From contig CAXXYH010000003.1 in assembly GCA_963677925.2 (NCBI GenBank), positions 512,001-576,000 of the forward strand: a stretch of DNA of 64,000 nt. The letters run 5' to 3'. This document shows positions 15,065 through 28,314 of the stretch, piece by piece (within the stretch, counting starts at the first letter, position 1; every line of letters starts with the position of its first letter). The notes beneath the pieces were generated by a model. It was given only the letters and a program-made list of their open reading frames with translations. It had not been told where the DNA came from and did not search any database. This DNA is from Spirochaetia bacterium. Lineage in GTDB: Bacteria > Spirochaetota > Spirochaetia > UBA9216. The translations under genes and the position numbers were made by a program.

Positions 15065-15973
15065 CTATGAAATGAGGCCGCATTGAGACAGCCGTATCCC
15101 CGACTGCAGGTAATCTTCTTCGCAGCTTTTCAGAACTGAACGTGAATATGCTTCAAGCCAGTGAATATCAGCAAAACCGGAGCCGGAATCGGATAGTTCC
15201 TCAGATATTTTACTCAACTGCTGAATAGCCCTGCCCATTTCTCTATACAGCATTGAAATATTCTTCCCCTCCGGTGTAATACAGCGTACCCCTGCGGCGT
15301 CTATCGAGATAAGATATCGAAGCTCTGAGGAAAGCAGTGCAATTTTTTTACGTCCGTCTTCAAAATTTTTGAAAGACTGAATGTAACCAGCCGGAACCTC
15401 TTTTCCGGAGAAACCAAGTGAACATCTGCTGCAAAATTGTTCAAAGGGACTCATAACACAATCATTTTTTAGAATCCTCAGCGCAATATCATATTCACCT
15501 ATAATTCCAGCTACAGCCGCATGGTATTCAGGATGCTCTGATGCCTCTGATTCAAGGAGATAAAATGATGATATGTTCTCACAGAGAGCTGTGATATCTT
15601 CAAGTACATCATCCATAAACCGCTTAAAACCTGTAGCTTCAGGATTGATAGTTAGAATATTCTCTTCTTTCCGGAACATCCGGCGGTAACCGGGGATTCT
15701 TAAAAGTCTTCCAAGATCTGAAGCTCCCGGAAACATAAGTGAAAAGGATATCCCCTGCTTATCCAAAAGCTTTACAAGATGCCCCAGAACTTCTTCCGGC
15801 AGAGTACCGCAGGACAGCAGTCTGGATTCAAATGTCCATGGGAAATTATCCAGAAGCCTGATAATAATTTCTGAAATACCATGACTCGAAAGTTCCGAAG
15901 GGAGAAGCAGCAGCCTTTCTGCGGCAGGAGGCTGAAAATCCAGATTTAATACTTGATTCATTTCATTATTCAT
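15065..15973 (-). CDS. Hypothetical protein, degenerate GH20/hexosaminidase-D-like barrel
   Basis: LNLDFQPP...IIIRLLDNFPW...TINP pattern resembles the GH20 HexD N-terminus; start moved to ATG 15973 (track start abuts the divergent gene). Confidence 0.55.
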   Translation of the reverse strand: MNNEMNQVLNLDFQPPAAERLLLLPSELSSHGISEIIIRLLDNFPWTFESRLLSCGTLPEEVLGHLVKLLDKQGISFSLMFPGASDLGRLLRIPGYRRMFRKEENILTINPEATGFKRFMDDVLEDITALCENISSFYLLESEASEHPEYHAAVAGIIGEYDIALRILKNDCVMSPFEQFCSRCSLGFSGKEVPAGYIQSFKNFEDGRKKIALLSSELRYLISIDAAGVRCITPEGKNISMLYREMGRAIQQLSKISEELSDSGSGFADIHWLEAYSRSVLKSCEEDYLQSGIRLSQCGLIS

Positions 15974-16051
15974 CCAGCTTTCAAAATACCAGATCAATTT
16001 TAAGGTGTAAAGGATCTGTTCAATAAACAATGAATCAGGTAAAATCAGCAC

Positions 16052-17389
16052 ATGGAAAAGATTGCAGATATACTGAAGAAGAATGCTGTTGCAGTACCGG
16101 AAATACTCCTGCCTGCAGCTGGAACAGACATGACTAAATGGGCAGTTGTAGCCTGTGACCAGTACACCTCCCAGAAGGAATACTGGACTGGCCTGAAGGA
16201 TTTGATTGCTGACGCACCTTCAACTCTGAACTGTATATTTCCCGAATGCTACCTTGAAGACGGCGATGAGGCTGAACGCATTAAAAGCATCAATTCACAC
16301 ATGAATAACTACATAGACTCAGGAGTTCTTGGAGAACCTGTTCCCGGCTTTATTCTGGTAAAAAGAGAAACACCTTCGTCAGCTCCAAGATGGGGATTGA
16401 TGGTCTCACTTGATCTTGAAATGTATGATTTCAGCGTCGGTTCGGTCAGTGCCATCAGAGCTACCGAAGGAACAATACTTGAACGCATACCGCCAAGGGT
16501 CAGGATTCGTGAAAATGCACCGATTGAACTTCCGCATATCATGGTTTTAATCGATGATCCTGAAAAAAGCCTCATTGAACCTCTTTCTGCTGATACCGAA
16601 TCTCTTGAGAAGGTGTACGATTTCGAACTTAATAATAAAAGCGGACATCTTACAGGATACCGGATAAACAGCCAGGAAAAACTGGAACAGATCGCAGCAG
16701 CATTCGAAAAGCTCGGTTCCGCAGATACAGCAAAGAAGATGTACGGAACAGAAAACAGGCTGCTTTTTGCCATGGGTGACGGAAACCACTCTCTGGCAAC
16801 AGCTAAAACAATCTGGGAAGACTATAAAAAGAATAATGCCTCAGATCCGCAGCTTATGAGCAACCCTGCAAGGTGGGCCCTTGTTGAAATTGAGAATATC
16901 TACTGCGAAGGAATTGAATTTGAAGCCATCCACAGGATTCTTTTCGGTCTTGATTATGATAATTTTGTAAGTGCCGCAACAACTGATGGCAGCTTCAGTG
17001 TTACAGCAGCGTCTGATTTTAATGAAGCGCTCAGCCTTATGACTGAAAATGCTGAAGTCCAGCGCTGCGCTTTTGTGACTGATAAAGGTGCCGGTGTAAT
17101 TACTGCCCGGAAACCGGACTCGTCAATAGCAGCAGGGACTTTTCAGAATTTTCTGGATGCATACCTTGAGAAAAACGCTGATACTAAAATTGACTATGTC
17201 CACGGTCTTGATGTAACCGAAGAAATTGGTAGTAAATCCGGAAATATGGGAATTGCTCTCCCCTCAATAGCAAAAGACAGCTTTTTCAGAACCGTAATAA
17301 ATGACGGAGCCTTTCCCAGAAAGACCTTTTCCATGGGTGAAGCTTTTGAGAAACGATTTTATGTTGAAGCAAGAAAGATTAAAAAGTAA
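16052..17389 (+). CDS. DUF1015 family protein
   Basis: WAVVACDQYTS, RATEGT, ELPH, MGDGNHSLATAK, PRKTFSMG. Confidence 0.9.
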   Translation: MEKIADILKKNAVAVPEILLPAAGTDMTKWAVVACDQYTSQKEYWTGLKDLIADAPSTLNCIFPECYLEDGDEAERIKSINSHMNNYIDSGVLGEPVPGFILVKRETPSSAPRWGLMVSLDLEMYDFSVGSVSAIRATEGTILERIPPRVRIRENAPIELPHIMVLIDDPEKSLIEPLSADTESLEKVYDFELNNKSGHLTGYRINSQEKLEQIAAAFEKLGSADTAKKMYGTENRLLFAMGDGNHSLATAKTIWEDYKKNNASDPQLMSNPARWALVEIENIYCEGIEFEAIHRILFGLDYDNFVSAATTDGSFSVTAASDFNEALSLMTENAEVQRCAFVTDKGAGVITARKPDSSIAAGTFQNFLDAYLEKNADTKIDYVHGLDVTEEIGSKSGNMGIALPSIAKDSFFRTVINDGAFPRKTFSMGEAFEKRFYVEARKIKK

Positions 17390-17621: not shown

Positions 17622-18065
17622 TTAAGTTTTTTTCGAAAAGGGGCTGTCGAGCAGCATCCAGGACAGGAAAAAAAACAGTATTCCAGTGATTAAGGCTGAT
17701 ATTCTGAATGCGGGGCTGTTATCCTTCTGCTTATAATCGCTGCTTAAGAGCAGGCCCATTGAATACAGACTTCGGCTGTCATTTGAATAGCCTTTAACAA
17801 GAATCATTCCCTCATCCGGGGCAAAATATCCGAGCTCTCTGGCTTTTACCTGTATCTCATCAGAATCAGTCATCAAACGCTGCGATTCTTTCTTTAACCC
17901 GGAATTTATCGAATCAAGCCGCTCAATATTATCCTCCAGCGACACCTTATATTCCTCAAGTTTCCTGTAGGAATTCATTCCATCCTGTCCGGATACAAGT
18001 ATTAGTATTAAAAACACAGCTACGGAGAGCCATACTGATATAGCCAGCCTGATTGAAGTTTTCAT
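17622..18065 (-). CDS. ftsB: Septum formation initiator FtsB/DivIC family protein
   Basis: TM helix, GQDG, coiled coil, ARELGY..PDE motif; extra C-terminal TM. Confidence 0.75.
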   Translation of the reverse strand: MKTSIRLAISVWLSVAVFLILILVSGQDGMNSYRKLEEYKVSLEDNIERLDSINSGLKKESQRLMTDSDEIQVKARELGYFAPDEGMILVKGYSNDSRSLYSMGLLLSSDYKQKDNSPAFRISALITGILFFFLSWMLLDSPFSKKT

Positions 18066-18150
18066 ATTAGTTATTACGGATTGTTTTACATCTTTCTTAA
18101 GTCTTATCGCTTAAACCTGCTTTCTTATTTTATATATTGTGTATTATAAT

Positions 18151-18177
18151 TTATTAATACGTTTTTCTTGCCGATAA
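18151..18177 (+). promoter_or_regulatory. Putative sigma28 (FliA) promoter
   Basis: Perfect -10 GCCGATAA at 18170-18177; weak -35 (TTAT at N15); followed by SD AGGAG and ATG 18210. Confidence 0.55.
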
Positions 18178-18209
18178 TAATTACAGCGTTTTGTATTCAG
18201 GAGTAAAGA

Positions 18210-21200
18210 ATGGCCGCTTTTGATGATATGGATGTTTCTTTTGACGATTTAGACGACGACACCGAAATCCAAGCCGGACTTGAAGACGACAATGATGAAC
18301 TCGAAAAATACGGTGTATGGGTAAAAACAGGCCCGGTAGACGTCGAAGAATCCGAGGATGAAACCGACAGTTCTGATTTTGTACTTGAAGATCTCTCAGG
18401 CGATGATTTTGAAGAGGATTTTGATTCCGATTTTAATTTAGAAGTTGAAGATGATGAACCGGAGTATGAGGAAGAACACGACCTGCTGACTGATGAGGAA
18501 GAAAATCTTCTCAGCTCTTTGGAAGATGAGATGTCCGAAATTGAAGCTGGAATTGACGAGAATGAAGATTTCTCTTTTGACGATATAGATGATACCATTC
18601 CAACGGCTGATGACGAAGCCTCAGTTATTGACGAAGACACCTTTACATTAGAAGAACCCGAAATCGAGCTTCCTGAACTCGATATGGAAGAACCTGAAAT
18701 AGAACCGGATACCGATGCAGAATTTAATGATCTCGATGCTCTGGAAGCTGATTTAACAAATATTGAAGAAGACCTTTCCGGAAGTATGACTGAACTGAGT
18801 GAAACGGTCTCATCTTCTGACGAACTTGACTCTGTAAGCTCAAAATCAATCCTAATGAAGATAGAAGAGGAACTTCTATCCATTAAAAAGGAACTTACAG
18901 ACCTCAAATCAGAACTTTCAACTATCAAATCTGCACCCGGAGCTTCTGCGGCTGAACCGGATGAATCCGGCGGATTTTTCGAAGAAGATGAGGATGAAAC
19001 AATTGCTCTGACAGGCGATGAGCTTGATAATATACTTAACACAGCAGATATTACGGAAGAAAGCGGACAGGAAACTGAAGCCCCCGAAGAATCATATGAT
19101 TCACATACCGATGCAGTGTCCGGTGATGAACTGGATAATATTGAAGATATTGACCTTGACTCAATCAGCGGTCTGGATCTTGATGCTGAACCTGAAGAGC
19201 CCTTTATTTCAGAGGAAATAACAGATACAGATGTGGAATCACTTCTCAACGAAGAGATCCCGGCTTCAGATGACACTTTCAACCAGGATGACACCGAAGA
19301 ATTACTTTCAGGCTTTGACGGGACTGAAATTCCTGAAGAGTCACTTTCAGACACCATTGATTCAGACGATATGCCGAATGAGACTCAGCTTGATGAAAAA
19401 GAACTTGAAATTATCCATGATGAGGAGATTGACCTTTCTTCAGTTGAAGATCTCGAAATGGATGATTTTGACATCAATGAAGAAGAAAGTGACGAACCTT
19501 CTTCAGACAGCTTTGCTGATGACATTATCACAGATGTACCTGACGACATCGATCTTGATGATATAGTTCTTGAAGAACCTGAAACTGAAGAAATAGATCT
19601 TAATGACCTCAATCTGGAAGAAGAGGGACTTATTACCAGTGACGATGCTATTTTGAATAGCATTGAGACAACTGAAGAAACTTCCCCTTCTGAAGAAGAG
19701 CTTGATTTGTCTGAAATAGGCGTTCAGATTGATGATGAAGAGCTGAATCTTGATAACGATATCGAACTTGAAGAAGAGGAACTCGAAATAGACGATGATC
19801 TCTTCCTTGAAGAGATAGAAACCTCACAGGAAGATGAAGAACTGAATCTTGATGAAGTTGCTGCTGAACTTAATAACGGTGAGATTATACTGGATGATGA
19901 ACTTGGGGACACTGAATTAGAGCTCGAGGACACTGAATTAGAGCTCGAGGACACTGAATTAGAGCTCGAGGACACTGAATTAGAGCTCGAGGACACTGAA
20001 TTAGAGCTCGAGGACACTGAATTAGAGCTCGAGGACACTGAATTAGAGCTCGAGGACACTGAATTAGAGCTCGAGGACACTGAATTAGAGCTCGAGGACA
20101 CTGAATTAGAGCTCGAGGACACTGAATTAGAGCTCGAGGACACTGAATTAGAGCTCGAGGACACTGAATTAGAGCTCGAGGACACTGAATTAGAGCTCGA
20201 GGACACTGAATTAGAGCTCGAGGACACTGAATTAGAGCTCGAGGACACTGAATTAGAGCTCGAGGACACTGAATTAGAGCTCGAGGACACTGAATTAGAG
20301 CTCGAGGACACTGAATTAGAGCTCGAGGACACGGAGTTAGAGCTCGAGGACACTGAGTTAGAGCTTGAGGACAATGAATTAGAGCTTGAGGACACTGAGT
20401 TAGAGCTCGAGGACACTGAATTAGAGCTTGAGGACACTGAGTTAGAGCTCGAGGACACTGAATTAGAGCTTGAGGACACTGAGCCGGAAACCGTAGACTC
20501 TGAAATCGTTTTTGAAGATACAGATCTGGAACTTGACGAATCTGCCATTGAACTTGATGGCGAGACAATAAATCTCGAAGAAGATACTGACATCAATCTC
20601 GATGAACTTTCTTTTGAAGACAGTGAAATTTCAGAACCAGAGGAACCAACTGAAGAACCGACAGATGACATTAACCTTGACGAACTCTCTTTTGAAGATG
20701 AAGATGATAGTTTTGCAGATATAGAAGTTGGCACAACGACACTTGAGATTCCTGAAGAGGAAAACAGTCTTACTGATGAAATTGAGCTTGACGGTGAAAA
20801 ATTTGCTATTGAGACTGAATCGGCTGATTCAATGATTGATATCGAAGGCCTTGACGAGCTTGAACACCCAGATGAGACAGTAACCGATGATTTTTCAGGT
20901 GTTTCGATAGAAGAGGAACCTTTTGACGAAATTGCACTTGACGAGGAACTGGACACTGATGACATTGAAGTTTCACCGACAGAAGAATCGCTCATAGAGG
21001 ATCCTGCTCAGGTATCTCTTGTAACGGAAGAAAATATATCAGACATTTCTGAAATATCCGCTGTAGAGGATGATACTATTGCTTCTATACCTGAAGATCT
21101 CAGAGATGACATAAAATCAGTTCTCTCATATATGGATCATCTGCTTGAATCTCTTCCTGATGATAAAATTACTGAATTTGCCAAATCTGAGCATTTCGAG

Positions 21201-21242
21201 GTTTATAAAAAACTTTTTGAGGAACTGGGACTTAAATCATAA
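18210..21242 (+). CDS. Very large Asp/Glu-rich, largely disordered protein with short ordered motifs and internal heptapeptide repeat
   Basis: 1010-aa ORF with SD; YGVWVK motif, coiled coil, GGFF...TIALTGDELDNIL motif, C-terminal helical IKSVLSYMDHLLESLP...YKKLFEELGL. Confidence 0.9.
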   Translation: MAAFDDMDVSFDDLDDDTEIQAGLEDDNDELEKYGVWVKTGPVDVEESEDETDSSDFVLEDLSGDDFEEDFDSDFNLEVEDDEPEYEEEHDLLTDEEENLLSSLEDEMSEIEAGIDENEDFSFDDIDDTIPTADDEASVIDEDTFTLEEPEIELPELDMEEPEIEPDTDAEFNDLDALEADLTNIEEDLSGSMTELSETVSSSDELDSVSSKSILMKIEEELLSIKKELTDLKSELSTIKSAPGASAAEPDESGGFFEEDEDETIALTGDELDNILNTADITEESGQETEAPEESYDSHTDAVSGDELDNIEDIDLDSISGLDLDAEPEEPFISEEITDTDVESLLNEEIPASDDTFNQDDTEELLSGFDGTEIPEESLSDTIDSDDMPNETQLDEKELEIIHDEEIDLSSVEDLEMDDFDINEEESDEPSSDSFADDIITDVPDDIDLDDIVLEEPETEEIDLNDLNLEEEGLITSDDAILNSIETTEETSPSEEELDLSEIGVQIDDEELNLDNDIELEEEELEIDDDLFLEEIETSQEDEELNLDEVAAELNNGEIILDDELGDTELELEDTELELEDTELELEDTELELEDTELELEDTELELEDTELELEDTELELEDTELELEDTELELEDTELELEDTELELEDTELELEDTELELEDTELELEDTELELEDTELELEDTELELEDTELELEDTELELEDTELELEDTELELEDNELELEDTELELEDTELELEDTELELEDTELELEDTEPETVDSEIVFEDTDLELDESAIELDGETINLEEDTDINLDELSFEDSEISEPEEPTEEPTDDINLDELSFEDEDDSFADIEVGTTTLEIPEEENSLTDEIELDGEKFAIETESADSMIDIEGLDELEHPDETVTDDFSGVSIEEEPFDEIALDEELDTDDIEVSPTEESLIEDPAQVSLVTEENISDISEISAVEDDTIASIPEDLRDDIKSVLSYMDHLLESLPDDKITEFAKSEHFEVYKKLFEELGLKS
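19908..20483 (+). repeat. Coding tandem repeat: 27 full copies of a 21-bp unit (DTELELE) plus a partial copy
   Basis: Unit GACACTGAATTAGAGCTCGAG; copies 1-20 (19908-20327) identical, copies 21-27 with mostly synonymous variants. Confidence 0.97.
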
Positions 21243-23053
21243 TGGATGTTCAAACTAATAAGTCCGGCCTGCTCGGCAGGGCTCTGCTTTTAAATGTTAC
21301 TGATTCAATTGAAGATATCAAACTGGATTCAGGTGAATATCATGAAGAAGCCGGTATTAATGATAATATAGAAGATCTTGTTCCAATAAACGGGGATGAT
21401 TTTGAAGATCATATTGACGATTTAATTGAAGAAGTAGATGAAGATGAATTCAATTCAGACATAGACGAAACAGAAACATCAGAATCGTCTGATTCAGAAT
21501 TTACAGAAGTAGAGGAAGAGATCTTTGACGACAGTGAAATTGAAGAGCTCGAAGAAGTAATTGAGGAAATCGAAGAAGTAACTGAAGAACCTGAAGAGGT
21601 AATTGAATTAGAAGAAGATTTTACTGAAGATGAATCGATTGAAGTTATAGAAGAAATTGATGAATTTGAAGATGATTCTGAAATTACAGATCTTGAAGAA
21701 GCCGTAGATGATGAAGAAAGTGTCGAAGAAATCAATGAAGATATAGAAATTTCAATAGGTGAAACCGACATAGAAATAGATGATGACTTTTCCGATTTGG
21801 AAGAGATTGATGATCTTGAAGATGAGGACTCTATAGTTGAGATAGATTCTCCCGATTTTAATGATGATCTGCTACCCTCACCTTCAGAGACGGAAGAAGA
21901 AACTGAAGAAGAAATCTCTGATCTTGACGGTTTAGATGACCTTGAAGATCTAGAAGAACTTCCAGGTGCTGATGATGCTGATGACGATATTGAGGAGCTT
22001 CCCTCATTAAATTTTAAAACTGAAAATGGAAACACCGAAAATCTTCTAAGCATTGACGCACTGCCCGAAAGAAAAATCAATTCTTCGACAAAGACGCTTC
22101 CTGTAGATATCCTTAATTCTGATATTAAATGGAACTATGATCATGATAAACTTAGAACAATGGTTCGAAATCTATCAGGCAGTCTTGAACTTCCCGCTGA
22201 AATATTTAAAGCAGCCCGTGAATATTTTTTAATTAAGTCAGGTATAATGCTTACTTTTGATTCAGAAAATGAAATTCTTCATCCATTCGCTTCAACAGGA
22301 ATTGATCAGACAAGCCTTAGAAGATGCCGTATTAGTTCTGAATTTTTAAAAAAGAAAAACATTCTGATGAATGGCGATTCAATTTTCTTAAATCTCCAGA
22401 AGTCACTTTTTACCGATTTCTTTTCAAAAAGACAGCTTGATATTACTGAATCTTTTAATATTCTCGTATTTATGTATCAGGATAAACTTTCCGGTATAAT
22501 GATAATTCTTGATTCTCCTGCGCTCCGCGACAGTCATTTCCAGGAAGCTGCTTATTTCTTCATTTCAAAAACTTCCGAAATGATGTTCAAAAATCGAGTT
22601 AATCGCATTGCGAAACTTTCATCGGCCGGCAACCTGCCTGCGATAGATTTTAATGATATAACCTCTAATGTTATCGATTTCTATGAAAGAAATGGAATAG
22701 AGCTTCATCAGGAGATTAAATTCACACTGATTGATTATTCAGGAATCATTAAATCTTTTGAATCATCCAACTCTCTTGTAGATACTTTTAATATTGAAAA
22801 GGATATTACGAAACTTCTTTTTTCAATGACAACAGATAAGGACTGCTTTCTAAGGGTCAGAGGCTATCGATTCTTTATCGGATTCTTTTCAGGTTTACGT
22901 GTTACGTCCGATATACTTAGAAATCAGATTAAGACTGCAGTATACTCAGTTTTTGATAAAAACAATATCGATTCTCCTCCTAGTGTTTCTATTTTTCAGT
23001 CTAATATTAATGCTGAAGAACTTGATAACCATATTAAAAATATCACAGAATAA
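21242..23053 (+). CDS. Protein with acidic disordered N-terminal half and folded GAF-like C-terminal region
   Basis: Overlaps the upstream stop (TAATG); GLLGRA motif, D/E-rich to ~aa 255, then alpha/beta region with ASTGIDQTSLRR. Confidence 0.8.
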   Translation: MDVQTNKSGLLGRALLLNVTDSIEDIKLDSGEYHEEAGINDNIEDLVPINGDDFEDHIDDLIEEVDEDEFNSDIDETETSESSDSEFTEVEEEIFDDSEIEELEEVIEEIEEVTEEPEEVIELEEDFTEDESIEVIEEIDEFEDDSEITDLEEAVDDEESVEEINEDIEISIGETDIEIDDDFSDLEEIDDLEDEDSIVEIDSPDFNDDLLPSPSETEEETEEEISDLDGLDDLEDLEELPGADDADDDIEELPSLNFKTENGNTENLLSIDALPERKINSSTKTLPVDILNSDIKWNYDHDKLRTMVRNLSGSLELPAEIFKAAREYFLIKSGIMLTFDSENEILHPFASTGIDQTSLRRCRISSEFLKKKNILMNGDSIFLNLQKSLFTDFFSKRQLDITESFNILVFMYQDKLSGIMIILDSPALRDSHFQEAAYFFISKTSEMMFKNRVNRIAKLSSAGNLPAIDFNDITSNVIDFYERNGIELHQEIKFTLIDYSGIIKSFESSNSLVDTFNIEKDITKLLFSMTTDKDCFLRVRGYRFFIGFFSGLRVTSDILRNQIKTAVYSVFDKNNIDSPPSVSIFQSNINAEELDNHIKNITE

Positions 23054-23055
23054 TA

Positions 23056-24612
23056 ATGTACAATTTCCGTGAAACCAGATCAGGAAATGAAACTGTTGAA
23101 ATAAACGGTCTGTTTCTTCACTCTAGTTTTGACCCTGTCAGAGAAGCAAAACGTTTCGTAAAATCAAATTTTAACAGTAACAGCACAACAGTTGTGTTGA
23201 TCTGTCCTGGGCTGAATTATATTGCCGCAGAAATTCGCAAAGACTGCTGCCATAATATTAAAATAATCTCACTTTATGCCTCCAGTATTTTTGCAGACAA
23301 AGACAATAATAAATCAGATTTTATATGGAATGCAGAGAGTAATTTACCTCTTAAAACTTTCCTAACATCAGTTTTAAATGAATTAGATATTGAAGGTTTT
23401 TCACTGCTTAAATGGTCTGCATCAGAAACCATCTTTAAAAAAGAAACAGCCTCAATTGAAAATGTACTAAGTCAATTTATCCGTGAGCTTCATGGAAACA
23501 TTACTACTATTTCAGGATTCGGTAAAATAATGTTTTCGAACTTTATTCGTAATTACAAGACGATTGAGAAGACCTTCAATATTACCGGAAAATCCGATTT
23601 AATTTTAATAGCAGCCTCAGGGCCTGGTCTTTCTGAAAGCATCAGTATTATTAAAAAAATACGAAAATCAGTTTTCCTGATTGCACTACCCTCTTCAGTT
23701 TCCTGTCTGCTTAATAATGAAATAGTACCTGATCTAATTATCTCTACAGATCCGGGATATTATGCCTCATTGCACCTCAGCAATTTAGAAATCCCGATTG
23801 CAGCACCGCTTACCGGAGCTCACAGCAGTAATATTCATAATATAACAGTTATTTTTACTCAAAATTATTTTCTTGAGAATGAAATCTTAAATAGCGAATC
23901 AGATTTTCTAAAAATTTCTTCGAATGGAACGGTAGCAGGTTCAGCATTAGGGCTTTCAGCGGTACTATCCAATTCATACATTATCTTCTGCGGTCTTGAT
24001 TTATGTTTTTCAGATATACAGGATCACTGCCGTCCTCACACTTTTGACAATCTAATCGAAACTTCGACCAATAGAACAAATCCTCTTCATAACACTTATT
24101 ACAACCGGAATGCATTGAATAGTTTTAAAATCGGTCACGGATTAGATAGACGCAGCCACGCAATGGAAGCTTATTACGGTTGGTTTGTTTCAAACAGCAG
24201 AAGGCTATCTAACAGAGTTTTATTTCATAATCCCCAAAAAAGAGCTCCTTCAGGATATAAAATATTAACTGATGCTCAGTTATTATCTTTATCTGAAAAT
24301 TGCGTTAATAATATTTCATTCACTGATAACAATAGATACAATGACGATTATACTCGAAATTCACTTATACAAGAATATTTAATAAAAGCCCAGGATGAAA
24401 TCAGACTATTTAAATCAGATACCGTCAATTCACTTAAAGATATATTAGCAAACCCTGATAAAAGTATTTTCTTTAATCTGTTTTTACCCCGGCTTCTTGA
24501 AATGAAAACCAGATATAATAAAGTTTCAGTGGACAGTCTTACTGAAATGGGTAATAATCTTGCAGAAGAAGCTGAAATCTTTATTAATAAAACAAGCAGA
24601 TATGTTAACTAA
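23056..24612 (+). CDS. Motility-associated factor (Maf)/DUF115 family protein
   Basis: LHSSFDPVREAKR, IAASGPGL, PDLIISTD, GTVA, GLDL motifs. Confidence 0.8.
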   Translation: MYNFRETRSGNETVEINGLFLHSSFDPVREAKRFVKSNFNSNSTTVVLICPGLNYIAAEIRKDCCHNIKIISLYASSIFADKDNNKSDFIWNAESNLPLKTFLTSVLNELDIEGFSLLKWSASETIFKKETASIENVLSQFIRELHGNITTISGFGKIMFSNFIRNYKTIEKTFNITGKSDLILIAASGPGLSESISIIKKIRKSVFLIALPSSVSCLLNNEIVPDLIISTDPGYYASLHLSNLEIPIAAPLTGAHSSNIHNITVIFTQNYFLENEILNSESDFLKISSNGTVAGSALGLSAVLSNSYIIFCGLDLCFSDIQDHCRPHTFDNLIETSTNRTNPLHNTYYNRNALNSFKIGHGLDRRSHAMEAYYGWFVSNSRRLSNRVLFHNPQKRAPSGYKILTDAQLLSLSENCVNNISFTDNNRYNDDYTRNSLIQEYLIKAQDEIRLFKSDTVNSLKDILANPDKSIFFNLFLPRLLEMKTRYNKVSVDSLTEMGNNLAEEAEIFINKTSRYVN

Positions 24613-26266
24613 TTCATTATTCGAACGAAATCTATTATCGCTTTCACTGCGCCACAAGGATCTGTCTGTAAGATTATCAAATTGTAATAAATCTGATAAT
24701 ACAGAATTTAAGGATTCAAAAACCGGACTGCCTGTTCCCATGATCAAATATAACGGCAGAGATTTTGCTCTTCATAGTCTATTTGACCCCATAAAAGAGG
24801 GTAAACGCTATTCAGAATCGGTACATGGCGGCGGATACATTGTTATATTCGGCATGGGTGCCTGTTATCATATTAAGGGGCTTCTTGACCGTAACGATAT
24901 TAACGGAATCCTTATCATCGACAAGGATATAACTGTTTTAAAGGCAGTCCTGTTATCTATTGATCTTTCTGATATTCTTTCAGATGCCAGAATTACTATT
25001 TTAATTGATGAAACGATAGAGTCAATTAAAGATTTTCTTTTATCAAGTTATCTTCCTGCTGTTATGGGTGATTTCCAGACTATATATCTTCGATCAAGAG
25101 TTGAAACCGAAAAAAATTATTTCAATGCAATAGGTGATTCCATAAAGGATATACTTGATGCACTTTCTGATGACTATACCGTCCAGACATGGTTCGGCAA
25201 AAAATGGTTTATTAACTCACTTGCTAATTTAGAAGCAGCGCAAAATTCAACAACTATAATTCCGCCGGCAAAAAAAGTGCTTATAGCCGCTGCCGGTCCA
25301 TCTCTGGATATTCAGCTTGACGATCTTATTAAAAGACGGAGAGAAAGTTTTTTAATTTCAACCGATACTGCTCTGCCAAGTCTTATGAGTCATTCTATAA
25401 AACCTGACCTTGTAATTTCAATAGATTGCCAGCAGATAACTTATCATCATTTTATGGCCGGATATCCTGAGGATGTTCCCCTGGTACTGGATCTGGCTTC
25501 GCCTTCATTTCTTACAAGACTTACAGATAAAACATTTTTCTTTACAAGCGGACACCCTTTTTCAAAATATATAAACCGTAATTGGAGACAGTTTCCTTTT
25601 ATAGACACATCCGGCGGGAATGTCACACATGCAGCGCTATCACTGGCAGACTCACTTGGCGCTGCTGAGATTTACCTTTACGGAACCGATTTCTCTTATC
25701 CTGAAGGTAAATCATATGCAAGGGGTACATATATCTATCCATATTTCGGCAGCAGGGCTGTTAGAACCTCTGGAATTGATTCAAATTTCTATAACTTCCT
25801 GCATCGTAATGAGAACATCAATCTTGTCAAAACAGATTACGGTTTCCGGTATACTACCAGACCGATGCTAAGCTACCGCGAGAGGCTGGAAAAGTTTTCT
25901 ATTAATGTAAGAGGCAAAATAATTCCTGTTCCGGGACAGGGTGAAAAACTCGAAATAGTTCAGAATACGAACAAACCTGCAGCAAATTTTACCAGCTTTT
26001 TTTCTGCCGGGAAAAGCAGATCCAGCTGGTATGATTTTCTGGAGAACTACAGAAAAAAAATTCTTGAACTGCCGGAACCCGCGGATCCGCTTTCAGTATA
26101 TTTTTCAATGCTGGATTTTACTGTAACAGACATATGGACAACACTTTTTCCAATTGCCGCAGTTTACCGGAAAAAATACCGAAACAGTAATTTCTCATCC
26201 TCGGAGATACTTAGAAAAGTACGTCTATGGGCTCTAGAAGCCACCGGGATTTATCTTAATAAATAA
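24602..26266 (+). CDS. Motility-associated factor (Maf)/DUF115 family glycosyltransferase-like protein
   Basis: LFERNL, LHSLFDPIKEG, AAAGPSL, TDTA, PDLVISID, GGNVTH, GTDFSY; start moved to ATG 24602. Confidence 0.85.
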   Translation: MLTNSLFERNLLSLSLRHKDLSVRLSNCNKSDNTEFKDSKTGLPVPMIKYNGRDFALHSLFDPIKEGKRYSESVHGGGYIVIFGMGACYHIKGLLDRNDINGILIIDKDITVLKAVLLSIDLSDILSDARITILIDETIESIKDFLLSSYLPAVMGDFQTIYLRSRVETEKNYFNAIGDSIKDILDALSDDYTVQTWFGKKWFINSLANLEAAQNSTTIIPPAKKVLIAAAGPSLDIQLDDLIKRRRESFLISTDTALPSLMSHSIKPDLVISIDCQQITYHHFMAGYPEDVPLVLDLASPSFLTRLTDKTFFFTSGHPFSKYINRNWRQFPFIDTSGGNVTHAALSLADSLGAAEIYLYGTDFSYPEGKSYARGTYIYPYFGSRAVRTSGIDSNFYNFLHRNENINLVKTDYGFRYTTRPMLSYRERLEKFSINVRGKIIPVPGQGEKLEIVQNTNKPAANFTSFFSAGKSRSSWYDFLENYRKKILELPEPADPLSVYFSMLDFTVTDIWTTLFPIAAVYRKKYRNSNFSSSEILRKVRLWALEATGIYLNK

Positions 26267-27080
26267 TACCTGCATAACCTACAAAAGATCTTGAAGGCTG
26301 AATATCATAACTGCAGGCATAATCAACAAGCATACCTGATTTAATATTCATAAGGCCTGCAAATACTGCAGCTGCAGCGGCCGCTCCCGGAGAACATGCT
26401 GAGGTCTCACTTAAAGCTGTATTAATAATATTATCAGGATTCATTGCTATCATCGCATCTATCATCCTTTGATCATTTATATTTTTTACCCAGCTTACAG
26501 GGTCATTCAGTGAATCCATAGGTGCAAAACCGTAGTTTGGACCATAGTGAGTCAGATCCGTAGATCCTACTACTGCACCTGAAACTCCCTGGTCATCAAA
26601 AATATTTTTCAGTTTTTCTGCCAATATAATGCTTTTAGAATCTGAAGGTGCACGCAGCCACAGGATCTCTGCATCCGGCGCCATTTGATTAATCATGGGC
26701 AGCAGAACCTCAACTGTGTTATCTGCGTAAACATCTTCTTTAACAGATATTTCCTTCTTTAAACATCCAAGAATACCTGCTGAATTTTTAGCTCTGCCAT
26801 TATCCGGAAGTTCAAAATAATCTTCTGAGGCAACAAGTATCGGATTCCCCGGCGGTAAATGTCCGCCAATTACAGCTATAACATCCTTATTGGAACAAAG
26901 CTTTTTTAATGTCTTTGCTGCTGTTCTTCCTGAAAAATACCATCCAGCATGGGGAACGACTGCAGCAGAAGTCATTTCATCATACTCCACTCCTTCAGTC
27001 CAATTATCTATCATTTTTTTGATATTATCACTTCTGGTTGGATACCATCCTTCAGGAAGCTTTCTGAAACGCATAGACAT
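26256..27080 (-). CDS. MEMO1 family (AmmeMemoRadiSam protein B-like)
   Basis: GWYP, VVPHAGWYFSG, DNTVEV, STDLTHYG, VGYAGI. Confidence 0.88.
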   Translation of the reverse strand: MSMRFRKLPEGWYPTRSDNIKKMIDNWTEGVEYDEMTSAAVVPHAGWYFSGRTAAKTLKKLCSNKDVIAVIGGHLPPGNPILVASEDYFELPDNGRAKNSAGILGCLKKEISVKEDVYADNTVEVLLPMINQMAPDAEILWLRAPSDSKSIILAEKLKNIFDDQGVSGAVVGSTDLTHYGPNYGFAPMDSLNDPVSWVKNINDQRMIDAMIAMNPDNIINTALSETSACSPGAAAAAAVFAGLMNIKSGMLVDYACSYDIQPSRSFVGYAGIIY

Positions 27081-27147: not shown

Positions 27148-28314
27148 ATGGTTAAAACATCGGTTAAAATATATTTTGCGGTAAGTTTGATATTTTTTAT
27201 AGCCCTTGCAGGCTACATATGGTACTCAATAGATGGATTCAAAAAAAACGGTGATACAGCTGCGGCTGATATTATCAATGTTCTGCAGAAAGATGCAGAA
27301 GTTTCTTTTTCGCTTTCGAAAGGCTTTTCCGGAAGCGGGTTCAGCCAGCACGTACGTGAGATCATGAGCAGTTACCCTGAATTATCGGGACTGATTATCT
27401 ATAGTAAACTTGAGGGTCCTGTTTATTTCAGTATTTATGATAAGAAGATTATAAGTTCAGATCCTTCAGAAATTTCGGAATGGAAGGGGCAGCCAGATTT
27501 CAATCTCTATAACCCCTTCTTTACTCAAAGATCTGTCAAATTATCCGTTCCTTCAAGTGATCTTTTTTTAACCATCGTGGTTAATACTTTTACCCGTTCA
27601 TCAATACTTCCGGTACTTAGAAATTCACTTGTGCTCGCCGTACTTTTTCTTCTCGTAACAGGGATATTCCTCAGCATCAACGGCAGTAGAAATCCATCAT
27701 TGACCTCAAATGATCGGCCATATACCGAAAATGGGAAAGTAGATAAGAATGATGGACCTTCTGAAGAAATACTTGATAAGCAGGCAGTTTCGGTTGCTGA
27801 TTCTAAGCAAAAAGCAGATACGGGAAGCCTTTTCTCTCCAAAGAGCGGTCTAGTATGGGAACATCTTTTACCCGAGCGTCTGTCCGCTGAGCTCAAAAGG
27901 GCAGCTTCATTTGATCAGGATGCCTGCTTAAGCTTTATAAGTATAAAGAGTCCCTCCGGATTCATACCTTACAGAAATATTTCCGAACTTATTATTGAGC
28001 ATTTTAATTATAAGGATCTTGCGTTTGAATATGGCAATAGCGGATTCTGCATTATTATACCTGACAAGGATATTGATGAGGGTCATACAGATGTTGAGCG
28101 CTTTAAAAAAAGTATTCTGAATCGTTTTCCGGAATCAGCCTTTAAAATATACGCAGGCCTTACATCACGAAACGGTCGGCTTCTTAACGAGGAACGTATG
28201 ATTCATGAAGCAAAGGTTGCCCTTGCAAAGGCGGAAAAAGAAACAGACAGTTCAACAATAGCTTTCAGAACCGATTTAAAGAAATACAGGCAGTTTATAG
28301 CTACAAAGGTTTAA
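27148..28314 (+). CDS. Two-TM membrane protein with degenerate GGDEF-like C-terminal domain
   Basis: Two TM helices; SPKSGL...RLSAELKRA...DLAFEYGNSGFCIIIPD...GLTSR...EAKVALAKA follows GGDEF topology. Confidence 0.7.
   Translation: MVKTSVKIYFAVSLIFFIALAGYIWYSIDGFKKNGDTAAADIINVLQKDAEVSFSLSKGFSGSGFSQHVREIMSSYPELSGLIIYSKLEGPVYFSIYDKKIISSDPSEISEWKGQPDFNLYNPFFTQRSVKLSVPSSDLFLTIVVNTFTRSSILPVLRNSLVLAVLFLLVTGIFLSINGSRNPSLTSNDRPYTENGKVDKNDGPSEEILDKQAVSVADSKQKADTGSLFSPKSGLVWEHLLPERLSAELKRAASFDQDACLSFISIKSPSGFIPYRNISELIIEHFNYKDLAFEYGNSGFCIIIPDKDIDEGHTDVERFKKSILNRFPESAFKIYAGLTSRNGRLLNEERMIHEAKVALAKAEKETDSSTIAFRTDLKKYRQFIATKV

Follow-up and report, generated by a model that had tools for sequence, protein, structure and literature searches.

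A sigma-28-type operon recurrent in spirochaetes pairs two Maf-type proteins with two candidate flagellar partners

Four coupled genes, here called A1, A2, M1 and M2, form an operon at positions 18210-26266 on the forward strand of the window (the whole 64,000-nt stretch of spirochaete DNA that was analysed). Our preferred reading, to which we give a probability of about one half, is that this is a late-flagellar sigma-28 operon, ancient in spirochaetes, in which the Maf pair (M1 and M2) would glycosylate the flagellin FlaB while A1 and A2 would serve as a pair of partners. Comparison of sequences confirms that the recurrence of gene order and promoter box across many families is more than chance.

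A1 (18210-21242) and A2 (21242-23053) meet in a TAATG junction with a 1-nt overlap; M1 (23056-24612) follows after a gap of 2 nt and itself overlaps M2 (24602-26266) by 11 nt if the M2 start is the ATG at 24602. The longest M2 open reading frame begins at an alternative TTG (24560), but alignments of orthologues start at query residue 13-17, which favours the ATG. Divergent from A1, and outside the operon, lies a conserved neighbour of the FtsB/DivIC family (17622-18065, reverse strand; PF04977, E 6.7e-10); pattern counts put an FtsB match in divergent orientation to A1 at 54 of 96 loci. The other neighbours are DUF1015, Memo, RNase Z, DnaQ, ClpB and g388 (27148-28314, forward strand), a conserved gene with a weakly GGDEF-like C-terminus (TIGR00254, E 0.0034) whose tblastn matches adjoin the operon in most loci and stand directly after M2, on the operon strand, in two small-genome relatives (L096 and L097). 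No flagellin or sugar-biosynthesis gene was found among the profile matches of the operon's neighbours; genes for NeuB and a cytidylyltransferase are encoded elsewhere in the genome. The sequence-only reading had proposed precisely this arrangement – four tightly coupled genes, divergent from ftsB, with neither sugar-biosynthesis nor flagellin genes adjacent – and the junctions, the PF04977 match and the neighbour annotation all bear it out.

The sequence upstream of A1 supports a promoter of the sigma-28 (FliA) type. The predicted promoter (18150-18177, forward strand) has a perfect -10 box, (T)GCCGATAA, at 18169-18177, with GCCGATAA at 18170-18177 lying 32 nt 5′ of the A1 ATG; its -35 element, TTTA at 18150-18153, agrees with the TTAA consensus at three of four positions, and AGGAG follows at 18199-18203. 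The consensus, derived from 50 promoter strings, is tTAA-N15-(T)GCCGATAA. The hexamer CCGATA precedes A1 in 50 of the 68 distinct orthologous windows; in the controls its frequency was 5.8% for 13,600 windows drawn at random, 3 in 68 for the antisense strand and 2.3 in 68 after shuffling. A matrix built from 47 promoter strings, leaving out this genome and its close relative, reaches its maximum in this genome (21.4) 31 nt upstream of flgM and also matches before two MCP genes; the operon box scores 18.8 of the possible 21.4, tied fifth among all positions of the genome, which encodes FliA (295 bits). The operon promoter further matches the elements of the Treponema denticola flaB2 sigma-28 promoter, for which the available part of PMC9481697 gives a mapped transcription start, a -10 of CCGATAA and a -35 of TTAA. 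The FliA-type box singled out in the earlier reading thus stands, being perfect, conserved, recovered by a matrix that picks flgM, and like PflaB2. A sigma-70-like match (9/12) overlaps the operon box, and no perfect box was found before the three flaB genes of this genome.

The four genes are syntenic elsewhere, as had been supposed: 74 of 96 loci show the order A1-A2-M1-M2, with A1, M1 and M2 scored as separate matches (the 96 include at least four duplicates, e.g., L004 = L016 and L002 = L021), and 18 more loci end within 2 kb of the last match. Of 91 loci, 84 have an A2-like open reading frame (200 aa or more) separating A1 from M1; in seven Treponema-type loci none of A2 size was found. 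In four Alkalispirochaeta loci a separate M2 was not found, despite 6.9 kb of sequence after M1. All four genes, together with a NeuB synthase, are kept in a minimal genome of 1.1 Mb (G141).

The distribution of the operon was tallied across 200 genomes of the class for flagellin, the A1 C-terminus, M2-like proteins (at E≤1e-20, which can take in paralogous Mafs) and NeuB. Six families (f1, f2, f5, f8, f9 and f24) are positive for all four in all or nearly all genomes. Four families lack all four (0/6 in f6, 0/5 in f19, 0/7 in f20 and 0/1 in f25); a fifth, f12, scores 0/10 for flagellin, A1 and M2-like proteins and 3/10 for NeuB; and f26 has flagellin in 9/9 genomes with 0/9 for each of the others. 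The expectation that A1 and M2 relatives would be absent where flagella are absent accordingly finds agreement in the five flagellin-less families, where none was found, and the NeuB sugar synthase is missing from five of the six families without A1 and M2 relatives. As the genomes share ancestry, what the tally shows may come down to about six independent losses; the co-distribution with NeuB holds only at the level of families. In a wider sample of the phylum the A1 C-terminal domain was matched in 209 of 251 genomes. Since f26 is flagellated, with flagellin, in the absence of A1, spirochaete motility as such does not require A1; nor can A1 be only a Maf helper, since it occurs without any Maf gene: it stands alone in f92, where no MptE-like gene was found in genome G327. 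In G153, a genome of another class, A1 is followed by a 757-aa protein with a GAF match and an MBOAT gene, and Mafs are not adjacent.

Profile matches make M1 and M2 Maf-type (MptE-like) proteins, paralogues from an ancient duplication, in keeping with the two Maf/DUF115 proteins first described: both exceed the PF01973 cut-off of 34.6 bits (M1 77 bits, residues 162-320; M2 99.6 bits), and both keep invariant core residues. M2, a putative Maf-type nonulosonic-acid transferase, scores just above the cut-off for Maf_flag10_N (PF20157; 25 against 23.5 bits) and matches the Maf of PDB 5MU5 (E 4.6e-7, residues 89-385). M1 is on the same evidence the more divergent paralogue: it has no PF20157 match and no match to solved Mafs among PDB sequences, its nearest PDB entry being the near-threshold 8SD5 (E 0.011), a 6-hydroxymethylpterin diphosphokinase; across 81 orthologues, 27 of its columns are at least 85% identical, including fully conserved D, G and H. 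Neither protein reaches the PseD equivalog NF050051, M2 scoring 67.3 and M1 19.7 bits, far below the cut-off of 670. This genome (G000) and two small-genome relatives (G141 and G055) each hold four MptE-like genes, that is, two besides M1 and M2, and one of the further copies in this genome (C4:2312296) lies ∼7 kb from fliA in the main flagellar region. The two further genes of this genome could be the true flagellin transferases, an observation that counts against the FlaB reading.

The MptE-like/DUF115 core is common to M1, M2 and the Mafs of the known flagellin O-sialylation systems (Maf-1, and Maf-2 with GlfM; Shewanella, Campylobacter, Magnetospirillum and Geobacillus), which act in the cytoplasm and modify flagellin with CMP-nonulosonic acids; for M1 and M2 the same is predicted. 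We infer that M1 and M2 most likely transfer a nonulosonic-acid sugar onto FlaB flagellins, and would do so in the cytoplasm, before export. Unlike the known systems, the operon has two diverged Mafs one after the other, and neither flagellin nor sugar genes lie nearby. According to the available part of a preprint (10.1101/2023.12.03.569772), a Maf can need the cis-encoded specificity factor GlfM for flagellin recognition; GlfM, however, is an 89-aa four-helix bundle, unrelated to either A1 or A2.

A1 is a protein of 1010 aa with 42.8% D+E and 1.7% K+R, and is mostly disordered (AF2 mean pLDDT 44; 783 of 1010 residues below 50). No membrane segment, hydrophobic stretch or signal peptide is visible by eye in the translation, the N-terminus being acidic. 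Although A1 had no match at E≤0.01 in a local copy of Pfam that lacks PF27359, its C-terminus points to membership of this uncharacterised TP_0179 family: PF27359 is carried by 120 of 120 relatives of residues 940-1010 among the matches listed, and the Atlas clusters nearest residues 900-1010 are named ‘TP_0179 domain-containing’ (scores 0.91-0.92). The system is therefore not wholly undescribed, as had been claimed, the more so as NCBI already labels M2 orthologues ‘motility associated factor glycosyltransferase family protein’. The C-terminal domain (residues about 961-1008; 21090-21233) has 17 invariant columns in the orthologue alignment and three predicted helices (962-981, 984-992 and 994-1005; pLDDT 84-88). 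It is shared with Treponema pallidum TP0179, annotated as a hypothetical protein, which the A1 orthologue of G141 matches in length (1884 nt) and also in coordinates, spanning 198,040-198,428. TP0179 has 627 aa against the 1010 of A1, and in the literature found it is treated as a recombinant or selected locus rather than functionally (PMC8789261, in the part available).

Two further modules of A1 are conserved: the N-terminal LEKYGVWVK (residues 30-39; 18297-18326), whose G35, W37 and K39 are invariant across 64 aligned orthologues, and a helix, probably a coiled coil (residues 209-241; 18834-18932; pLDDT 79-91), with the consensus LxxIExELxxIKxELxxLKxEL. Between these and the C-terminus runs a 21-bp tandem repeat encoding DTELELE (19907-20482; 27.4 copies, 97% matches, TRF score 1082), a 27-copy array that sets A1 apart from TP0179 and is variable, lineage-specific filler; a relative 90% identical (L001) has an A1 of 940 aa.

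A2 comprises an N-terminal GLLxRA motif, an acidic insert (residues about 20-255), a GAF domain (about 317-430) and a degenerate GGDEF-like domain (about 470-602). The claim of two hyper-acidic proteins consequently holds for A1 and fails for A2 as a family: residues 1-255 have 46.7% D+E, the C-terminal 348 residues are charge-balanced, and the insert is specific to this lineage. With this architecture A2 is ruled out as an acidic scaffold by family. The AF2 model of residues 256-603 (pLDDT 87.8, pTM 0.83) recovers GAF-GGDEF cyclases, GAF domains and PelD in Foldseek, and the Atlas agrees; as in these proteins, the C-terminal 290 residues of A2 are predicted to fold as a GAF domain, followed by a long helix and then by an alpha/beta domain resembling GGDEF. 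An active cyclase is ruled out by RGYRF in place of GG[DE]EF at the predicted hairpin, and in the segment of the GGDEF site no column is conserved at 50% or more in orthologues. A2 departs from PelD and the cyclases in other respects too: TDKD lies where a PelD-type RxxD would be, the conserved residues D259, R262 and D266 belong to a different helix, the MGLLxKA-type N-terminus is conserved, there is no membrane segment, and the best-conserved residues are concentrated in the GAF domain. The conserved GAF pocket suggests that A2 senses a small ligand or a partner.

We envisage A1 and A2 as partners rather than enzymes. A1 would be a long, acidic, disordered tether with three conserved docking modules: the N-terminal YGVWVK, the coiled coil with, after it, the FliM-like helix IALTGDELDNIL, and the three-helix domain at the C-terminus. 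A2 would be a GAF protein with a catalytically dead GGDEF domain. Together they may form a flagellum-linked regulatory or targeting pair that times or places the Mafs, or flagellin handling generally; this is the weakest step of the proposal.

The IALTGDELDNIL motif of A1 (residues 265-276; 19002-19037) is near-invariant and the best-conserved stretch of the disordered protein. The strict pattern occurs in 56 of 75 distinct A1 orthologues, and with a looser one variants were recovered in 16 of 18 orthologues rechecked; in AF2 it is a short helix (269-279). It resembles the N-terminal CheY-binding (EIDAL-type) peptide of FliM and FliY: against LSQDEIDQLL (FliM) and LSQDEIDALL (FliY) of this genome, LTGDELDNIL of A1 is identical at 5 of 10 positions and conservatively changed at 3 more. 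The common pattern L-[ST]-x-[DE]-E-[LI]-D-x-[LI]-L, written after the sequences had been seen, matches only A1, FliM and FliY among 4481 open reading frames, and was found in 53 of 20,000 shuffles of A1. The A1 motif differs in having G in place of the FliM/FliY Q, and in treponemes N in place of the second D, that of ELD; and whereas the FliM motif is N-terminal, that of A1 is internal to a disordered, non-switch protein. Binding by A1 is putative.

This motif speaks for an alternative that we regard as unlikely, namely that A1 and A2 are a flagellar regulatory module in their own right, merely co-transcribed with the Mafs. The A1 helix would then bind CheY-P or the MinD-like ATPase FlhG, with A1 as a sink, tether or placement factor and A2 sensing a nucleotide or other ligand. 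The EIDAL peptide of FliM and FliY docks FlhG in addition to CheY. For CheY, binding to the FliM motif is described in the available part of PMC6946799. Beyond the conservation, predicted helicity and specificity of the A1 motif, the module draws support from G153, where A1 has four copies of the motif (the window's A1 has one) and keeps its pairing with a GAF-type protein without adjacent Mafs. Against it stand the post hoc pattern, the D to N change in Treponema, the internal position of the motif, the failure to find it in the short versions of A1 in f92 and g21, and f26, flagellated yet without A1. A bolder version, which we hold to be a long shot, makes A1 a multivalent imitation of the flagellar switch, timed by sigma-28: a disordered, acidic tether that would catch CheY-P or FlhG with its FliM-like helix and hold A2 and the Mafs through its other modules. 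Were it true, chemotaxis signalling or the control of flagellar number would be coupled to flagellin glycosylation and export in very long cells.

Doubtful, too, is the view that M1 and M2 glycosylate a target different from FlaB (candidates are the Ser/Thr-rich A1, a protein of the sheath or hook, and some other late substrate) and leave flagellin to the other two Mafs. The four MptE-like genes per genome, the paralogue within the main flagellar region and the lack of an adjacent flagellin gene would all fit. However, characterised Mafs act on flagellin (10.1101/2023.12.03.569772, in the part available), the sigma-28 timing and co-distribution with flagellin and NeuB fit flagellin, and the FlaBs of T. 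denticola carry several distinct glycan sites (2026 structure paper), which could need several enzymes.

HubP and FimV are very large, acidic, repeat-rich proteins whose conserved terminal modules recruit flagellar and chemotaxis partners, and A1, which is likewise giant, acidic and repetitive and has conserved ends, is alike in its possible way of working, without homology. That the operon is such an organiser of the cell pole or division site, with A1 an acidic landmark linked to ftsB and only indirectly to the flagellum, would accord with the conserved divergent FtsB neighbour, with the JGI label ‘pilus assembly protein FimV’ on 4 of 120 A1 relatives among the matches listed, and with the coupling of spirochaete flagellation to division through FlhG (PMC13712777, in the part available). 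We consider it improbable: of the features expected in HubP/FimV proteins, a LysM or peptidoglycan-binding domain, a membrane anchor and a FimV C-terminal domain, none appears in A1 (Pfam at E≤0.01; translation by eye, which likewise reveals no signal peptide); the flagellin-less families in the sample yielded no A1, though their cells divide; and the promoter is of the sigma-28 type. That M1 and M2 are instead MptE-like kinases or pyrophosphokinases of a small molecule, as the name of their Pfam family (after the archaeal 6-hydroxymethylpterin diphosphokinase) and the 8SD5 match of M1 might hint, is scarcely credible given the Maf N-terminal domain and Maf structure matched by M2, their Maf-like size (500-570 aa, against a kinase chain of 241 residues) and a distribution that follows flagellin and NeuB.

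No paper naming the transferases of the FlaB glycan was found, although the first description of the glycan, from 2017, may name candidates; the word Maf is absent from the 2026 structure paper, and only passing mentions of Maf or DUF115 together with spirochaetes were found in the literature. On the FlaB reading, the operon supplies a pair of candidate enzymes along with two unstudied partners, and the full set is kept in a 1.1-Mb genome with a TP0179-like A1. Motility is central to spirochaete invasiveness, and a phylum-wide late-flagellar module for that reason gives genetic work on tractable treponemes something definite to aim at. A further lead, new and cheap to test, is the FliM-like peptide embedded in the disordered, acidic A1, which could show how long cells connect chemotaxis or flagellar placement with the building of the filament.

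The four genes of the operon lie on the + strand: A1 (18210-21242, 1010 aa) encodes a hyper-acidic protein, probably of the TP_0179 family, A2 (21242-23053, 603 aa) a protein with a GAF domain and a dead GGDEF domain, and the paralogues M1 (23056-24612, 518 aa) and M2 (24602-26266, 554 aa; longest ORF from a TTG at 24560) encode Maf-type (MptE-like/DUF115) proteins. The sequence-only reading had proposed a motility or polarity system behind a sigma-28-like promoter, and what it observed in the window is confirmed: the ORFs, the TAATG overlap of A1 and A2, the 2-nt gap between A2 and M1, the 11-nt overlap of M1 and M2, the promoter box, the divergent FtsB gene, the acidity and the Maf-type matches. 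The DivIC/FtsB gene (17622-18065, - strand; E 6.7e-10) diverges from A1; a DUF1015 gene on the far side of the promoter region (16052-17389, + strand) and a 328-aa ORF without a family match (15065-16051, - strand) travel with it in many loci. At the other end, the Memo gene (AmmeMemoRadiSam system protein B; 26256-27080, - strand) converges on M2, overlapping its end by 11 nt, and beyond it lies g388 (27148-28314, + strand), a 388-aa gene whose product weakly resembles GGDEF at its C-terminus (TIGR00254, E 0.0034). None of the genes adjoining the operon in the window is a flagellin or sugar gene.

The arrangement recurs elsewhere, as the proposal of a module implied. We compared 96 loci – 15 stretches from relatives found via A2, 80 contigs found with the A1 C-terminus (every title Spirochaetota) and the window, with at least four duplicates – and in 74 the order A1, M1, M2 is present as separate matches. 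In 18 further loci the sequence ends less than 2 kb past the last match; four Alkalispirochaeta loci have no separate M2 despite 6.9 kb of sequence beyond M1. Of the 91 loci holding both A1 and M1, 84 have an ORF of 200 aa or more between them, and the seven without an A2-sized ORF all bear Treponema or Treponemataceae titles. By hit pattern, FtsB is divergent upstream of A1 in 54 of the 96.

Downstream of the operon there is usually Memo, then g388. The position of Memo after M2 is kept in many loci, not in those of Treponema type; g388 adjoins the operon in most (one relative's copy is at L096:4565-5980, - strand). Because g388 lies on the same strand and directly 3′ of M2 in two small-genome relatives, G141 and G055, it may be a fifth operon member there. 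Comparison of A2 with g388 by hhalign was not significant.

The -10 box upstream of A1, GCCGATAA (18170-18177, + strand), is perfect, and the -35 matches at three of four positions; an AGGAG (18199-18203, + strand) precedes the ATG at 18210. Upstream regions of relatives were anchored on the A1 N-terminal motif [YF]G[VI]W[VI]K and the box sought 50-230 nt upstream. CCGATA is present in 50 of 68 distinct regions, against 5.8% of 13,600 random 180-nt windows from the same loci, 3 of 68 antisense regions and 2.3 of 68 shuffled ones. Aligned on the box, the 50 strings give the consensus T(78%) T/C A(70%) A(74%)-N15-T(86%) G(78%) CCGATA A(70%); spacing of the type tTAA-N15-CCGATA is the classical sigma-28 spacing. 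In T. denticola the flaB2 sigma-28 promoter, with mapped start site and reporter test, has CCGATAA at -10 and TTAA at -35 (PMC9481697). The box persists as TCAA-N15-GCCGATAC before A1 of locus L099 (genome G327), and no CCGATA occurs within 200 nt upstream of A1 in L098, from a genome of another class (G153).

A matrix was built from 47 of these strings, excluding G000 (the genome carrying the window) and its 90%-identical relative, and both strands of the 5.04-Mb G000 genome were scanned. The maximum (21.4) falls 31 nt upstream of the start of a 94-aa protein, FlgM by Pfam (contig C3:2055823-2056135, - strand), the TTAA-N16-TGCCGATAA there being the top-ranking sigma-28-type box of the genome. 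The window box, at 18.8, is tied fifth genome-wide, and good boxes precede two MCP genes (C3:670519 and C3:1931980). Most other high scores are intragenic and probably arise by chance. The 20 annotated ORFs, out of 24 downstream of the top 45 positions (the ORF of the window and three with lower scores being excluded), comprise one FlgM, two MCPs and a remainder that is unrelated or consists of pieces of larger genes. The flgM and the two MCP genes are first candidates for the FliA regulon of G000, which encodes FliA itself (295 bits against a cut-off of 189.6). Two observations count against a sigma-28 reading: a sigma-70-like match (9/12) overlaps the window box, and no perfect box precedes the flaB genes of G000. 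Searching strictly for GCCGATA[AT] on the basis of crude gene calls turned up just 12 candidates between genes, none of them before flaB; by eye, one flaB gene has TAAA-N15-aCCGAcca upstream. Scans for sigma-70 promoters (40 against 33.6±5.5) and terminators (10 against 6.8±3.2) were at chance level.

One 200-genome sample of the class was searched for flagellin, the A1 C-terminus, M2-like proteins and NeuB, counting genomes with a match. The expected absence from flagellin-less lineages was borne out. Families f6 (six genomes), f19 (five), f20 (seven) and f25 (one) gave no match to any of the four, and f12 none apart from NeuB in 3 of 10; in f17 each of the four is found in 4 of 9. Family f26, small, multi-contig genomes that are probably the Lyme and relapsing-fever group, has flagellin in 9 of 9 and the other three in 0 of 9. 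With G000 included, the totals of 201 are 163 for flagellin, 129 for the A1 C-terminus, 140 for M2-like and 150 for NeuB, where related genomes are not independent, incomplete ones can miss genes (A1 adjoins assembly-breaking repeats) and the M2-like tally can include paralogues. Many relatives' contigs break off within A1 or next to it; draft assemblies therefore probably often lack the gene or hold only part of it, which lowers its tallies. Across a sample of the phylum the A1 C-terminus was found in 209 of 251 genomes and 113 of 116 genera. Five genomes are exceptions, G327, G347, G367 and G385 of family f92 and G322 of f17 (genus g21): FlhA is present and a short A1 is kept, and none gave a match to M2. 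Flagellin_N had no match in G327 or G322, nor was an MptE-like gene found in G327, the sole f92 genome searched. At the G153 locus (L098:5142-13049), just downstream of ATP synthase genes, a 988-aa A1 precedes a 757-aa protein with matches to GAF, an MBOAT acyltransferase and a 396-aa ORF.

A1 consists of 42.8% Asp+Glu and 1.7% Lys+Arg, and includes a 21-bp array (19907-20482, + strand; 27.4 copies, 97% identical) encoding DTELELE. Searches against local Pfam and NCBIfam gave nothing beyond low-complexity noise; the 120 relatives listed for its last 71 residues have PF27359 without exception, a family that the Atlas names TP_0179. The orthologue in G141, a 1.14-Mb single-contig genome, is 1884 nt long (197,782-199,665) and agrees in size and position with the tabulated T. 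pallidum TP0179, a 'hypothetical protein' (1495+389 nt, position 198,040-198,428; PMC8789261). From gene order only, we infer that TP0176-TP0178 are the numbers of M2, M1 and A2. Rajagopala 2007 (PMC1943423) names no TP017x or TP018x in its main text. Membership of HubP/FimV was rejected because the defining domains are missing. T. pallidum Arp has a SPOR domain, and on that ground was dropped as a counterpart.

Among 64 orthologues conservation of A1 is confined to four islands: LExYGVWVK, with invariant G35, W37 and K39; a heptad-like helix; GFFxEDEDETIALTGDELDNILNTAxFTEE; and the C-terminal domain. In the AF2 model from this alignment pLDDT averages 44 and is below 50 at 783 of the 1010 residues. 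Confident helices are predicted at 209-241, 703-754 and in three C-terminal segments within 962-1005; a short helix over island 3 (269-279) is less confident, its 10-residue blocks averaging 54-64.

Island 3, the best-conserved stretch, holds a FliM-like peptide, ETIALTGDELDNILNTAD. Of 75 distinct orthologues, 56 have it under a strict pattern, and a looser one finds variants in 16 of 18 rechecked, as well as in G141 (ETIALTNDELNNIL) and G055; A1 of G153 has four copies, and with the looser pattern the peptide is absent from the short forms of f92 and g21. In G000, FliM starts ...VLSQDEIDQLL and FliY ...SLSQDEIDALL, and among 4481 crude ORFs L[ST].[DE]E[LI]D.[LI]L has just three matches, namely A1, FliM and FliY; it also occurs in 53 of 20,000 A1 shuffles; since the pattern was written after the sequences had been seen, the match is a lead, not a test. 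FlhG uses the EIDAL motif of FliM. This N-terminal motif is also CheY-binding (PMC6946799), and the CheY of G000 is encoded in a cheA-cheW-cheX-cheY row.

Two hyper-acidic proteins had been proposed; the description fits A1, but A2 is acidic in residues 1-255 only (46.7% D+E), the charges of its last 348 residues being balanced. Folded with 78 orthologues, residues 256-603 (pLDDT 87.8, pTM 0.83) are predicted to form a GAF domain, a long helix and a GGDEF-like domain with RGYRF at the GGDEF hairpin. The best Foldseek matches are GAF-GGDEF cyclases, isolated GAF domains and PelD, and the Atlas agrees. Conservation peaks in the GAF domain (G98, D100, T102, T/S103, R106, F139, S140, R142 and E143 in model numbering, the invariant S140 being A2 residue 395). 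The orthologues mostly have 300-440 aa and start MGLLxKA, and the acidic insert is therefore peculiar to this genus. A word-based homologue search with the C-domain found no relatives; they came from whole-genome search and synteny. Of 36 loci whose GAF ORF has no MGL-type start, 25 carry a run of 10 to 12 A within 600 nt upstream, and many have a short MGLL...KKK ORF upstream in another frame (for example L005:1634-2800, L006:8352-9450 and L031:6589-7713). This pattern points to frameshifting or slippage at a conserved site in A2 of relatives; the window A2 is in a single frame, with no such A-run.

M1 and M2 are both above the MptE-like/DUF115 cut-off. M2 is barely above that for Maf_flag10_N, aligns with a solved Magnetospirillum Maf (5MU5, E 4.6e-7), and has orthologues that NCBI names Maf-family, DUF115 or MptE-like proteins. 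M1 is the more diverged. Simple regexes for the Maf core motifs being uninformative, alignment was used (81 and 71 orthologues): invariant core residues are kept in both, which therefore do not look decayed. Each of three genomes checked has two further Maf paralogues.

The FlaBs of T. denticola are modified at four or five sites with an O-linked nonulosonic-acid derivative, a glycan needed for filament assembly (PMC13439194). Mafs are known flagellin nonulosonic-acid transferases, one class of which needs a cis-encoded adaptor (10.1101/2023.12.03.569772). We infer that M1 and M2 are flagellin transferases, which would be expressed with the late genes. The co-distribution of operon, NeuB synthase and flagellin fits this, as does the retention of all three in a 1.1-Mb genome; the extra Maf paralogues and the want of an adjacent flagellin or sugar gene speak against it. 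We found no functional study of spirochaete Maf/DUF115 flagellin glycosylation, TP0176 to TP0179 or PF27359, though a 2017 glycan paper may name candidates; both protein families are catalogued and uncharacterised.

The conserved core consists of A1 and A2. A1 is paired with a GAF-type partner in another class (G153) with no adjacent Mafs, and stands alone in f92, so the two must do more than serve as a Maf adaptor. The two proteins would form a flagellum-linked tether and sensor pair and, in the boldest version of this proposal, which builds on the island-3 peptide, CheY-P or FlhG would dock on A1.
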